A DNA stretch of 64,000 nt, from the NCBI RefSeq assembly GCF_046105845.1, contig NZ_CP151004.1; one strand, given 5' to 3'. The stretch comes from Escherichia coli (lineage in GTDB: Bacteria; Pseudomonadota; Gammaproteobacteria; Enterobacterales; Enterobacteriaceae). The translations under genes and the position numbers were made by a program. The notes under the pieces are model-generated. The model had not been told where the DNA came from, made no database searches, and saw nothing but the letters and a program-made list of their open reading frames with translations. Every line of letters starts with the position of its first letter. Positions within the stretch are counted from its first letter, which is position 1. This document shows positions 19,997 to 64,000 of this stretch, one piece after another.

Positions 19997-21085
19997 TTAC
20001 ACCATCGGCACTAATGAAAGCGCGTTATCGGCAGACAGGGTAGGGTTGTTTAAGCTGCCGCTGGCGCGTGAAATTGCCGCGCAGGCCATCGCAAAACGGG
20101 CGCTGTCACGGAAATTGTTTCCCTCCAGAAAGCTATATACCAGGCCCGCCATAAAACCATCGTCAGCACCAAAACTGTCTACTGTCGTATGCGCTGGCGC
20201 TGTCAGCAAAAATTGCTCTCCATTCTTTTCGCTGCAATAAACTGACTCATCGGGCAAATAAACAAACAGTTGCTGAACGCCTTGCTGATGCAACGCATTC
20301 ACTGCGGCATTACGGTCAGCATCGCTGGTGATCGCCTGTCCCCATAAAATTTCCAGCTCCGGTAAAGTGGGTTTCAGGGTGTGAATATGCGCCAGCCAGT
20401 GTTTGATTTTGCCCGCTTTGAATTCTGAAACGGTATCGACAAACACCGGGATTTCATCAGCGAGGGTAAAGACCCACTCCAGCGCCTCGGCTGTCAGGTT
20501 GCAATCAGCAAGTACCACGCCCGCATGACGAAGTAAATCGCGCGACCCGTTCAGTAGTTGCGGTGTCAACTGATCCAGCAGATGGGTATCGTTAATCGCC
20601 AGCACGGTTTGATCATCTCGATTGGCAATTGCCAGATACGTCGATGTGCTTTGACCATGTAAACGAACGCAGCCGGAGACATTCACGCCGGCGCGGCGCG
20701 TTTCTTCCAGGAGCATTTCGCCATAAAAGTCATCGCCAATCACTGAAAGCAAATGGACGTCGCGGCCTAACAGCGCCAGATTGTGGGCGATATTGCGTCC
20801 CACGCCGCCCGCCGAGCAATGAATTGTACCGGGATGAGAAGCCGCTTGTGGGTAACGGATATCCGCCATCCCGCGAATATCCATATTGATTGTCCCAACC
20901 ACTACGCAGTATTCCTGCTCGGTGAGAATGTAACCTTTGCCTTTAATCCGGCCTTTGCGCATTAAATCCATAATATGCGCAGCAACGCGCGAACGGCTGA
21001 TTTGCAGCATATCCGCAATTTCGTTCTGCTGAATCAGCGGGTTACGCCGTAAAATTGCAAGGATCTCCTTCTCCCGGTTGTTCAT
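19997..21085 (-). CDS. yeiI: HTH-fused PfkB-family sugar/nucleoside kinase
   Basis: 362-aa ORF. N-terminal ~55-aa winged-HTH-like segment (…QNEIADMLQISRSRVAAHIMDLMRKGRI…) followed by a PfkB kinase domain (…GGVGRNIAHNLALLG…). Confidence 0.88.
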   Translation of the reverse strand: MNNREKEILAILRRNPLIQQNEIADMLQISRSRVAAHIMDLMRKGRIKGKGYILTEQEYCVVVGTINMDIRGMADIRYPQAASHPGTIHCSAGGVGRNIAHNLALLGRDVHLLSVIGDDFYGEMLLEETRRAGVNVSGCVRLHGQSTSTYLAIANRDDQTVLAINDTHLLDQLTPQLLNGSRDLLRHAGVVLADCNLTAEALEWVFTLADEIPVFVDTVSEFKAGKIKHWLAHIHTLKPTLPELEILWGQAITSDADRNAAVNALHQQGVQQLFVYLPDESVYCSEKNGEQFLLTAPAHTTVDSFGADDGFMAGLVYSFLEGNNFRDSARFAMACAAISRASGSLNNPTLSADNALSLVPMV

Positions 21086-57057: not shown

Positions 57058-57789
57058 TTAAATGCCGAGTGGGAAAATATCATGGCCTTGTTCCTGCCAA
57101 CTGGTGAGTTGCTGCTGTTGGGCGGAGGTTCGATTTTCACCGCACCACACCAGCAATGTACGGCCTTCGAACAGTTCAGGGCGTAGTTGATTGAGCGAGT
57201 GGGCGAGGACATCAATGCGCCATCCTTGTTGACTGGCAATCCAGCCCTCCAGCCACAGACGGGTGGTATCATGAATATTCCAGCCAACCACCAACGCATC
57301 TTTACCCTGTTTTTTACGTGCCGAAGCCAGGCAAATGGCGATGTAGTTGATCAGTACGCCGTCGAGGATCGCCAGCAGCGCCTGGAGAGTCGGTTGTTGG
57401 CACTGAAGTCGTCGGCGCAGAGGAATAAACAGATGTGTGGTGAGCGTCTGGGCGGGGTAATCCTGACCGCGCTCTTTGATCCACGTTCGCAGGCTATGCA
57501 GATTGCCGCTTTGCAGGTAAGTCAGTAATGTTTCTTGCTGATCGCGCCAGCCGTTCTGCACATCAACATTTTCATTACTGAGCAGCATTTTAACTTTGCT
57601 GACCTGCACGCCGTTGTCGATCCAGCGTTTGATCTCGCGGATCCGGTCAATATCGGCATCATTGAACAGCCGATGACCGCCGTCTGTCCGTTGCGGTTTC
57701 AGCAATCCGTAACGCCTCTGCCACGCGCGTAACGTGACAGGGTTAATATCACAAAGCAACGCCACTTCACCAATTGTGTAAAGCGCCAT
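57058..57789 (-). CDS. mlrA: MerR-family transcriptional regulator (curli/csgD activator type)
   Basis: 243-aa ORF with N-terminal MerR HTH (MALYTIGEVALLCDINPVTLRAWQRRYGLLKPQRTDGGHRLF…). Confidence 0.9.
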   Translation of the reverse strand: MALYTIGEVALLCDINPVTLRAWQRRYGLLKPQRTDGGHRLFNDADIDRIREIKRWIDNGVQVSKVKMLLSNENVDVQNGWRDQQETLLTYLQSGNLHSLRTWIKERGQDYPAQTLTTHLFIPLRRRLQCQQPTLQALLAILDGVLINYIAICLASARKKQGKDALVVGWNIHDTTRLWLEGWIASQQGWRIDVLAHSLNQLRPELFEGRTLLVWCGENRTSAQQQQLTSWQEQGHDIFPLGI

Positions 57790-60969: not shown

Positions 60970-61431
60970 TTATTTCACTTCTTTAAAACCAGCGGCTTTC
61001 ATCACCAGTTCCATTTGCGCCATAGTGATACCTTTTTTGGCATCTTCAGCAGAAACGTTGATTCCTGAAATACCCTGCAGGGCTTTAAAATCCACTTTTT
61101 CCATATCGATAGTCACGTTTTCCTGCGCGTAGGTATCGGTATAGGTTAATTTTTCTTCAACACCCGCGATGTTTTTGTATTTGGCGCTTAACGGCTCAAG
61201 TGTCTTGGCAGCATCTTCTTTGGTGGTTGCACCAATGGAGGCAAATTGAATTTTGGTTTCAGAAGATTGCTTAAGCACCTTGTCACCTTTGTAGACATAG
61301 GTAATGGCAATTTCAGTGCCGTTCAGATTGGCGCTGAATTTTTTCGATTCTTCTTTGTCACCGCAGCCAGCAAGAGAGAAAACCAGAACAGATGCAACAA
61401 CGAGGGAAAACAGCTTATTGAAAGCCTTCAT
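60970..61431 (-). CDS. yehR: Lipoprotein (DUF1307)
   Basis: 153 aa from ATG 61431 (MKAFNKLFSLVVASVLVFSLAGC, lipobox). Confidence 0.85.
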   Translation of the reverse strand: MKAFNKLFSLVVASVLVFSLAGCGDKEESKKFSANLNGTEIAITYVYKGDKVLKQSSETKIQFASIGATTKEDAAKTLEPLSAKYKNIAGVEEKLTYTDTYAQENVTIDMEKVDFKALQGISGINVSAEDAKKGITMAQMELVMKAAGFKEVK

Positions 61432-61876
61432 GTAAAACTCCATTTTATTTAATCAAGGAACTGGTGACTCTCACCAGGGGCTATATAGGATATGCCTAAT
61501 ACCGTGGCGTGAGCAGTCCGGAACTGGAGTAGAACTCTTAGTAAAAAGCACTATTTCATCCTTGTTGCTGAAGCATGGGGAATAATTGTTCGCAAAGCAA
61601 AACACCGTTATTCATTGCTTCTACCCGTGCCTCGCTTTCTGTATTACGAAATTGTGCCAACACATGTGCCAGCCGATAAAAACCCACCGCGGTGAGGTCA
61701 TTCGCCAGCAACTCTGCCTGACCAATAGCACTCTGTTCCTGATAGCGCCAGCCGTTATGGAGCAGTTGAATAAGTAACGCCTGGCAGCGCATCAGCAACT
61801 GATGAGCGGTAGACGGCACAGGCAGAACGCTGGCAGAAGGTAGCGGTGCCACAGGCGCAGTTTCTGCGTCCAGCGC

Positions 61877-63556
61877 TCAGGCGCGGGTTTTGGTCATCAT
61901 TACCCGTGGTTCCAGTGTCAATTGCCCCTCAACAAAACTGACAAAGCCAGAAACCAGACTCACGGGGTCGTCTGTGTGTTGCAAAAGTGCCGCCATGCGT
62001 TCAACGGCAAAAGGAGAACAGGCAGATGCCGGAAGGGATAACGTCAGCACATTATCTTCCCCTTCGCCGCTAATGACCTGCGCGTCCAGTGTCTGGCGGC
62101 TGCTATCCCAACCAAGCGAAATACACTCCGCTACCGGCAGAATAAATAAGTTATCGACCTGGTTGAGTGGTCGTATGCAGGCGGGGGGACGCTGGCGTAA
62201 ATATTCCCGCAAAGCCACAATGCCCGACTGGCGCAACGGCGCGCTCAACATTTGCCAGGCGTCTGGCGACAGCGGCACAACGCTGCTTAAGCGGTTGCGG
62301 GTAGCTAACAACAGCTCGCCATCGGCACTGCGTTTTGCTGCTTGTGAAACAATTTGCCCACCTGCCAGTGCGCCAGCCAGAAAACTAAACAGCCGACGCG
62401 TCGCTGCCGGTGAGTTTTCCTGTTCGCTTCTCGGCCAACTACGCGAAAGATGCAAAATACTGCCAGTGTCGGGATCGGTAAACCAGATGCGTAAACCATA
62501 ATGCTCAATATCCTGCCAGCAACGCATACCTAAAGACACCAGCCGCAGATGATCAAGCTTTGCTTCTCCGGCAATGCCAGAGCCAACGACCGTGCGCCAC
62601 GGCACAGGAGGAACTTCACCAACACTGTCGCGCCGGGCCATCTCTTGTGCGCAATTTAATCGACTGTTTAATGCCGCAAGCTGACGTAAGCATTCTCCGA
62701 CATGATAGTGGCTGGCGCGGGCGTGGAAGGCATCAACGCTGGCGCGCAGTTGCCGTAGCGATTCACTCACCCAGCGCCAGTTGCAGCGTTCCGCCGCTTG
62801 CTGCGCGCGGCTGAAAGCAGCCTTGTAATGAATAAGCGGCTGGCTGATGCCGCCAAGCCATAACGCCTGGCTTAATTGCTGAACATATTGACGACACGCG
62901 TCGCCCTCATCGTTGGCAAACGGATCGTCAGATGATGTGACGTGTTCGCTGCGCATCTGCCAGATTAAATGAGTAAATTCCGCTTGCTGCGCTTTGGCCT
63001 GGACAAAGGCCTGTACTGCCAGTACGACATGTTCGCAAAGTGTGCCGTCAATACAATCACAGCGTGCGAAACGAATGCTGCTGCGGGAATAAAAACGTAC
63101 ATCGCTCATCGGTAAGCGGGCAGAGGGAATTTCGCCCGGCGTACAGAACAACTCAATGGTGATGCCTTTAGCGACCAGTGTCTGTGCGCGTTTGCGGGTG
63201 GCATCGGGCAGGGTAGCCAGTTCTTCCAGCCAGATTGCCGGATCCCACTCTTCTTCTTTTTCCGTAGGCTGGGTGGTGGCGCAAAGTCGCTGATAACTTA
63301 AAACCAGCATCACGCGATGGCGGCACATGCCGCTGGCCCCGCAGCTGCATTGAGCCTCTTTCAGTGCCTGACCGTTCGCCAGCTGGGTGCGGACACCGTC
63401 ACTGAAGGTGGCGATTAAAGCGCCGTTCTCATGGCTGATTTCCGGGACGTTGCCATTTTCCAGTTCTTTAAGGCTGCGCTTAACAAAACCGGCATTGCTT
63501 AACGCCGTCAAAGCTTGTGGTGTCAGTTCTAATAATTCCGGCCGTAGTGAATTCAT
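61877..63556 (-). CDS. yehQ: SWIM zinc-finger domain protein (reading frame ends at an in-frame TGA; see findings)
   Basis: 559-aa ORF; start ATG overlaps the yehP stop (ATGA at 63553-63556). Contains Cys/His SWIM-like clusters (…CSCGASGMCRHRV…, …CDCIDGTLCEHV…). Confidence 0.75.
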   Translation of the reverse strand: MNSLRPELLELTPQALTALSNAGFVKRSLKELENGNVPEISHENGALIATFSDGVRTQLANGQALKEAQCSCGASGMCRHRVMLVLSYQRLCATTQPTEKEEEWDPAIWLEELATLPDATRKRAQTLVAKGITIELFCTPGEIPSARLPMSDVRFYSRSSIRFARCDCIDGTLCEHVVLAVQAFVQAKAQQAEFTHLIWQMRSEHVTSSDDPFANDEGDACRQYVQQLSQALWLGGISQPLIHYKAAFSRAQQAAERCNWRWVSESLRQLRASVDAFHARASHYHVGECLRQLAALNSRLNCAQEMARRDSVGEVPPVPWRTVVGSGIAGEAKLDHLRLVSLGMRCWQDIEHYGLRIWFTDPDTGSILHLSRSWPRSEQENSPAATRRLFSFLAGALAGGQIVSQAAKRSADGELLLATRNRLSSVVPLSPDAWQMLSAPLRQSGIVALREYLRQRPPACIRPLNQVDNLFILPVAECISLGWDSSRQTLDAQVISGEGEDNVLTLSLPASACSPFAVERMAALLQHTDDPVSLVSGFVSFVEGQLTLEPRVMMTKTRA

Positions 63557-64000
63557 GACTGAAGATTCTCCGCAAGCCAGGTCGCCAGTTCGCCCGGCGT
63601 CATGGCGGCTATTTGTGCGCCGACATTAACCAGCGCCTGGGCCGTATCGTGGTCATAGCAAGGTGTTGCGGTGCTATCGAGCGCCGCCAGTCCCAGTACT
63701 TTGATGCCGCTCTGGACACACTTTTTCACCTGATGCGTCAGTAATGATGATGAACCCCCTTCGTAAAAATCGCTCACGAGGATAATGACGCTTTTCGCTG
63801 GTTGTTCAATAAGTTGCCGACCATATTCCATGGCACTGGCGATATTGGTTCCGCCGCCTAATTGCACTTTCATTAATAACTCTACCGGATCGGCAACGTC
63901 TGCCGTGAGATCAACCACGCTGGTGTCAAACGCCACCAGATGGGTACGAATACCGGGTAACTGCCATAAACAGGTCGCCATCACCGCTGAGTGGATCACC
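63553..64000 (-). CDS. yehP: von Willebrand factor A (VWA) domain protein, C-terminal part (N-terminus beyond window end)
   Basis: Open reverse-strand frame to the window edge; VWA-like sequence (…VAFDTSVVDL…GGGTNIASAMEYG…ILVSDFYEGG…). Confidence 0.8.
   Translation of the reverse strand, partial: VIHSAVMATCLWQLPGIRTHLVAFDTSVVDLTADVADPVELLMKVQLGGGTNIASAMEYGRQLIEQPAKSVIILVSDFYEGGSSSLLTHQVKKCVQSGIKVLGLAALDSTATPCYDHDTAQALVNVGAQIAAMTPGELATWLAENLQS

Follow-up and report, generated by a model that had tools for sequence, protein, structure and literature searches.

We analyzed a stretch of 64,000 nucleotides of Escherichia coli DNA (NCBI RefSeq assembly GCF_046105845.1, contig NZ_CP151004.1), referred to here as the window, whose minus-strand end carries the distal part of the yehLMPQ operon (feature span 61556-64000). 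This long-annotated E. coli operon is uncharacterised rather than unknown and ranks among the larger E. coli gene blocks of unassigned function; its MoxR-type ATPase, YehL, represents the only MoxR subfamily without a functional clue. We find that in the yeh system a MoxR–VWA module is accompanied by three unusual, conserved proteins, namely YehM (DUF5682), the double-SWIM protein YehQ and a WGR–DUF4132 protein whose gene is the fifth member of the cassette. That the co-occurrence of their genes survives rearrangement of gene order is a good argument for a joint role of the five products. A previous reading of the window (the original prediction) had described a VWA protein and a SWIM zinc-finger protein at the end of this operon; beyond it, we report a nonsense mutation in the yehQ of the window, the WGR–DUF4132 partner, and oligonucleotide/oligosaccharide-binding (OB)-like barrels in the YehQ model. 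Concrete leads to the role of the system are the five-gene cassette, which is conserved in Proteobacteria and as far away as Cyanobacteria, its WGR, SWIM and OB-like modules, and an SOS box at the lead gene in E. coli.

The MoxR–VWA core and its conserved partners

At the end of the window, the final 148 codons of yehP (codons 231-378 and stop; 63553..>64000) are followed by yehQ. Both genes, and all features given below, are on the minus strand, so that upstream of the operon lies beyond coordinate 64000. The partial gene had been taken for the C-terminus of a VWA-domain protein, in agreement with our profile searches: the part inside the window, 148 residues long, scores 148.9 bits (E 1.9e-43; cut-off 26.4) with Pfam VWA_CoxE, and the full-length protein matches with E 3.3e-70. 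The metal-ion-dependent adhesion site (MIDAS) of YehP is complete in the full protein (DQSGS...T...D); its Thr (GGGTNIASA) and Asp (LVSDFYEGG) lie inside the window, and the DxSxS motif about 4 codons past its end. The stop of yehP overlaps the start of yehQ in an ATGA (63553-63556), and direct reading of the sequence thus bears out the translational coupling noted before. Using megablast, region 61400-64000 was recovered in 5,367 of the 5,426 complete E. coli genomes (top identity 98.8%; annotated yehP, yehQ and yehR), the closest complete genome being that of strain SCU-102, and 5,317 of the 5,426 carry annotations for both yehP and yehQ.

The remainder of the operon was read from a contig of the same lineage (L059), which is identical to the window along 10,999 nt but for a single mismatch and reaches 4.2 kb past coordinate 64000. 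It contains intact yehP (378 aa, DxSxS included), yehM (759 aa, DUF5682) and a complete yehL (AAA_5). The upstream MoxR-type ATPase named in the original prediction is therefore present as an intact gene, and no housekeeping function is assigned to the operon. The genes are closely packed, with a gap of 10 nt between yehL and yehM, an overlap of 8 nt between yehM and yehP, and the ATGA between yehP and yehQ; the VWA gene yehP lies two genes downstream of yehL. YehL matches AAA_5 with E 1.6e-34 and carries a Walker A motif (GEPGTAKS), a sensor-1 motif (ATAN) and an Arg finger (KRRF). It gives its name to one of seven MoxR subfamilies (PMC3893208). Among solved structures, the AAA modules found in Midasin are closest to it in sequence (E 6.6e-10), and an NCBIfam search returned only far-sub-threshold matches (GvpN, MadB and cobaltochelatase).

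A MoxR/AAA_5 ATPase and a MIDAS-VWA gene in one tight operon are features that yehL/yehP share with RavA–ViaA, CbbQ–CbbO, NorQ–NorD and CoxD–CoxE. In contrast to these pairs, the yeh cassette has three added partners (DUF5682, double-SWIM/OB-like and WGR–DUF4132) and lacks an accompanying gene for a client enzyme. The combination of an AAA_5 motor with a MIDAS domain that grips a target also recalls Midasin/Rea1 of eukaryotic ribosome assembly; however, Midasin is one chain of 4,700-4,900 residues with six AAA modules and its own MIDAS, whereas the yeh motor and MIDAS are separate small proteins.

The fifth partner of yehLMPQ is a WGR–DUF4132 gene of the molR/yehI type (here I; WGR domain E 2e-19). 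In Serratia fonticola and Variovorax, a gene for a WGR–DUF4132 protein of 1,291-1,391 residues precedes L-M-P-Q, with flanks unrelated to those of E. coli. Species-representative genomes were scanned with a 13-sequence YehQ alignment, a survey biased toward Proteobacteria, and this yielded 51 loci from Escherichia, Klebsiella, Intestinirhabdus, Erwinia, Edaphovirga, Variovorax, Acidovorax, Paracidovorax, Xenophilus, Comamonas, Burkholderia, Massilia, Azoarcus, Agrobacterium and Rhizobium. Of the 46 proteobacterial loci with enough flanking sequence, 44 have the complete five-gene cluster, for which three orders were seen: I-L-M-P-Q, L-M-P-Q-I (Burkholderia) and L-M-I-P-Q (Agrobacterium and Rhizobium). 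A cyanobacterium of the Nostocales (L061) encodes DUF4132, DUF4132, AAA_5, DUF5682 and VWA_CoxE proteins as well as a YehQ homologue of full length (hhalign E 7e-60). E. coli has two copies of the fifth gene, molR (yehF/yehH; WGR–DUF4132; a pseudogene in K-12) and yehI.

Architecture of YehQ and YehM

YehQ had been proposed to be a SWIM zinc-finger protein, and Pfam SWIM indeed matches it above the curated cut-off (E 2.7e-8; 33.6 bits against 19.6) in two stretches. The first finger spans residues 39-93 (63278..63442) with the core CSCGASGMCRH (63317-63349), and the second, SWIM-type finger spans residues 133-190 (62987..63160) with the core CDCIDGTLCEH (63029-63061). Across 76 YehQ homologues, the ligands of finger 1 (C70, C72, C78 and H80; CxCx5CxH) are invariant and those of finger 2 (C166, C168, C174 and H176) nearly so. 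An exhaustive search places 413 clusters (50% identity) in the YehQ family at E<=1e-30, in keeping with yehP and yehQ being real genes.

A structure model was built from the 76 homologues, with a predicted local distance difference test (pLDDT) of 93.2 and a predicted template-modelling score (pTM) of 0.91. It predicts a central four-helix bundle (residues 216-311; 62624..62911), a β-rich region comprising two OB-like barrels (residues 331-561; 61874..62566) and a C-terminal four-helix bundle whose helices fall within residues 583-665. When the β-region was compared with the PDB using Foldseek, the best match was RPA70 DBD-A/B (1jmc; E 9.3e-4, probability 1.00), and the runners-up were LEF-3, RPA, HIN, CST, POT1 and RADX, that is, tandem OB-fold nucleic-acid binders. 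As modelled, the YehQ barrels look like tandem OB folds; RPA70 DBD-A/B, LEF-3, POT1, CST and RADX are the best solved matches to residues ~331-561, at ~10% identity and with low template-modelling scores. Unlike these proteins, YehQ also contains a pair of SWIM fingers and a pair of helical bundles. Sequence searches of the PDB with YehM, YehP and YehQ gave no match.

Long YehQ homologues were also screened for domain fusions, which returned only one protein (P0344; 778 aa, metagenomic), with VWA_CoxE followed by a YehQ-like region and a SWIM finger. This could be a genuine fusion of YehP to YehQ, which would support physical association, or a gene-calling merge over the ATGA overlap. A mention of YehQ in a crosslinking paper was rejected as a decoy-database match.

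YehM is cytoplasmic, and its model (pLDDT 84) has an N-terminal α/β domain followed by an α-solenoid of ~500 residues. Foldseek with the whole YehM model gave 0 significant solved matches, with α-solenoid look-alikes only. In the N-terminal domain, His, Glu, Asp and Cys are invariant at many positions, and two motifs of the GxxH type occur. Sub-threshold Pfam matches to three families of the Tiki/ChaN/TraB/erythromycin-esterase superfamily were seen in 6 of 37 members (lowest E-values: ChaN 0.063, erythromycin esterase 0.16, TraB 4.2), and two databases label DUF5682 proteins as 'ChaN family' (including 'ChaN family lipoprotein'). We regard kinship of the N-terminal domain to this superfamily as a lead, not a result: the GxxH-type motifs and invariant acidic residues are present, the profile matches stay sub-threshold, and YehM differs from the superfamily in being cytoplasmic and in carrying the long α-solenoid.

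Possible functions of the cassette

We tentatively read the cassette as a remodelling machine built on a MoxR–VWA pair and equipped with DNA-type sensors, a reading to which we give somewhat less than an even chance. The products of the linked genes would then form a complex able to bind DNA. More specifically, a hexameric AAA+ ring of YehL would supply ATP-driven pulling or remodelling, as in the characterised MoxR–VWA pairs, and the MIDAS metal-ion site of YehP would couple this ring to its target. YehM would act as a scaffold, perhaps carrying a hydrolase-like or catalytic domain, and YehQ and the WGR–DUF4132 protein would steer the machine to nucleic acid or nucleoprotein, possibly in a DNA-damage context. 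We count the WGR domain, the two SWIM fingers and the OB-like barrels as the DNA-type modules in favor of this reading. Regarding damage, molR has been listed among the LexA-regulated genes with a known SOS box (PMC6590174), and in K-12 we located the box AACTGGATAAAATTACAGGG, with one mismatch, 7 nt ahead of the yehF/molR ATG. Depleting the damage repressor DdrO strongly induces WGR and DUF4132 genes in Deinococcus. The molR promoter is also activated by BglJ–RcsB (PMC3950696).

Several observations weigh against such a machine. The SOS box sits at molR, and none was found at yehL. A relaxed LexA-like box was present only in K-12 and Intestinirhabdus, with none in Serratia, Erwinia, Variovorax and others, and the perfect CTGT-N8-ACAG was absent near every cassette in the 58 loci scanned. 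Because boxes are limited to K-12 and Intestinirhabdus, SOS control is not family-wide, and any SOS link is local and concerns molR only. The Walker B motif of YehL is atypical (FEEI instead of hhhhDE), and SWIM and WGR domains can mediate protein contacts. Furthermore, yehL and yehM are raised in hns/stpA mutants (PMC3686432) and appear to be silenced by H-NS from their own region. Two betaproteobacterial loci have the order P-Q-I without adjacent L and M (L039 5216-12634; L051 8600-16255, Betaproteobacteria bacterium MS502); either their ATPase and scaffold genes lie elsewhere, or this is a three-gene form. Finally, we found no experimental test of yehL, yehM, yehP or yehQ function in the literature searched. 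Upstream in the two P-Q-I loci are genes for a GGDEF/EAL protein and an unrelated ATPase-like regulator.

The same MoxR–VWA core could instead serve as a maturation chaperone for a metalloenzyme, of the CoxD/CoxE, NorQ/NorD or CbbQ/CbbO type, which would insert or repair a cofactor with the other three proteins as assembly scaffolds. The placement of YehP in the VWA_CoxE family and the weak resemblance of YehL to GvpN and cobaltochelatase-type ATPases fit this explanation, as does the fact that all MoxR members characterised to date have a particular protein complex as their target (PMC3893208). The metal would perhaps be molybdenum, as suggested by the old name of molR, historically the molybdate metabolism regulator; however, the molybdenum genes of Deinococcus did not respond alongside the cassette homologues. 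Moreover, no client enzyme gene travels with the cassette, whose flanks wholly differ among E. coli, Serratia, Variovorax and the cyanobacterium, and the modules of the extra subunits (WGR, SWIM, OB-like) are of a nucleic-acid type and not of a cofactor-handling type. We consider a maturation chaperone unlikely.

A large multi-gene NTPase system bearing DNA-type domains might also be an uncatalogued anti-phage or anti-plasmid defence, in which the sensors would detect foreign DNA and an effector, perhaps the YehM N-terminal domain, would be powered by the ATPase. Consistent with defence are the patchy spread across phyla with rearranged gene order, the H-NS silencing of yehL and yehM, and the repeated inactivation of the cassette (the stop in the window, an amber in K-12, many truncated clusters and insertion sequences in other phyla). 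Nevertheless, defence systems are usually variable, whereas the yeh genes occupy one fixed chromosomal site in 5,317 of the 5,426 genomes of E. coli as well as in other species of Escherichia. Their neighbors are ordinary metabolic and transport genes and not defence islands. No recognized toxic effector domain is present. The defence-catalogue comparison that the original prediction had brought up came out negative, with no PADLOC-DB 2.0 model matching YehI, YehL, YehM, YehP or YehQ at E<=0.01. The MoxR–vWA–β-propeller ternary conflict systems (bpMoxR) do share a MoxR ATPase, a VWA protein and additional subunits in a cluster, but YehL reaches 18.4 bits against a cut-off of 27, and the yeh cassette is without a β-propeller and without a recognized effector domain. 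Full-length 'phage' families for YehM, YehP and YehQ exist in PHROGs v4; these are an artefact and were rejected as evidence for a phage origin, as the record of the VT1-Sakai prophage includes the flanking chromosomal yehP and yehQ (AP000400.1 919-2919) and so contaminates the phage protein library. Altogether, a defence role appears quite unlikely to us.

Returning to the remodelling machine with DNA-type sensors, a narrower version in which it is damage-linked and clears or processes proteins stuck on DNA is very unlikely at present. Here, the WGR and SWIM/OB-like subunits would find nicks or single-stranded DNA, the MIDAS adaptor would grip the trapped protein, the MoxR ring would pull, and the ChaN/Tiki-like domain of YehM would hydrolyse. 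If true, it would be important, as it would follow in bacteria the same logic as the p97/SPRTN pathway that deals with DNA–protein crosslinks, and would provide a first function for the YehL subfamily, DUF5682 and DUF4132.

The yehQ allele of the window and other local features

The original prediction had set the left boundary of the feature at 61877. This position proved to be a premature in-frame stop, and the natural end of yehQ is 61556. In SCU-102 the ancestral yehQ has 666 codons (2,001 bp) and corresponds exactly to window 61556-63556; compared with it, TGG for Trp560 is changed to TGA in frame (61877..61879). The open reading frame list and the alignment to the SCU-102 gene accordingly define a shortened yehQ frame of 559 codons plus the premature TGA (61877..63556) and an untranslated 3' remnant of codons 561-666 plus the natural stop, with the frame kept (61556..61876). 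Both of the last two operon genes are therefore present in the window as had been stated, but the visible yehQ is a truncated allele and yehP is partial.

Comparison of the two alleles revealed 31 base differences, of which 25 are silent, 5 change an amino acid and 1 creates the stop; this excess of silent differences indicates that yehQ has been under purifying selection in the species. The 106 codons after the stop are still in frame with no further damage, and both of their amino-acid differences from SCU-102 are common to K-12; therefore, the stop at Trp560 is recent. The 61-mer spanning the stop had 0 exact matches in the 5,426 complete E. coli genomes (the best has one mismatch), and the exact 559-aa YehQ was found on only 4 contigs of the protein collection, inside a cluster of 11,049 sequences.

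Because the stop deprives the second barrel of its last strand and removes the entire conserved C-terminal bundle, the YehQ of the window strain is probably impaired or dead. Conversely, the bundle could be dispensable and the stop a neutral length variant that leaves a functional protein. The 559-aa form does keep both zinc fingers and most of the barrels, K-12 YehQ lacks part of the bundle too (stop at codon 615), and lengths of 612-627 residues are common among the YehQ proteins of E. coli and Shigella sonnei. However, the C-terminal bundle can be aligned in homologues down to 22% identity, the cyanobacterium included, and its G602 and G625 are nearly invariant. In addition, the stop hits a Trp in the last β-strand of the second barrel that is nearly invariant among YehQ relatives down to 48% identity, and the allele is rare (4 contigs and 0 complete genomes). 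Dispensability is thus doubtful. The leftover 3' open reading frame (61556-61852; 87-98 codons), called as a separate 87-aa gene in contig L059, is a pseudogene fragment and not a gene.

Strain K-12 MG1655 carries its own amber in yehQ (L005 19101-21101), a GAG to TAG change at codon 615 (locus position 20943), which is independent of the codon-560 opal of the window and accounts for the annotated 614-aa YehQ of K-12. The exact K-12 allele is found in 348 records, mostly laboratory derivatives, and further YehQ truncations, 416-627 residues long, occur frequently in E. coli and Shigella. Broken copies thus occur both in K-12 (the amber at 615 and the molR pseudogene) and in the window strain (the opal at 560). 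Since both yehQ and molR are broken in K-12, null phenotypes from K-12 screens are uninformative and isolates with intact genes are preferable. Cassette decay is not confined to E. coli, as split genes are also seen in the cyanobacterium, where the DUF5682 gene is interrupted by an IS605 OrfB/TnpB-type element (L061 10001-13653), and in Actinomadura madurae (L060), whose decayed cassette has an IS481 transposase nearby.

Elsewhere in the window, mlrA is uninterrupted (57058-57789); in the VT1-Sakai lysogen, the prophage is integrated in this gene (yehV/mlrA). A promoter and terminator scan near the yehQ 3' end gave nothing beyond chance level. A +1 frameshift-prone site has been reported within yehP (PMC2790909), which by sequence comparison corresponds to 63816..63831; at this site in the window, the Shine-Dalgarno-like GGAG stimulator of the frameshift cassette is absent, and the cassette is conserved less than stated in that report. 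Upstream of the operon, the spacer between the yehK remnant and yehL, a region reported to bind H-NS, is ~1.15 kb in SCU-102 (L001 3790-4941) and 307 bp in K-12 (L005 14290-14597).

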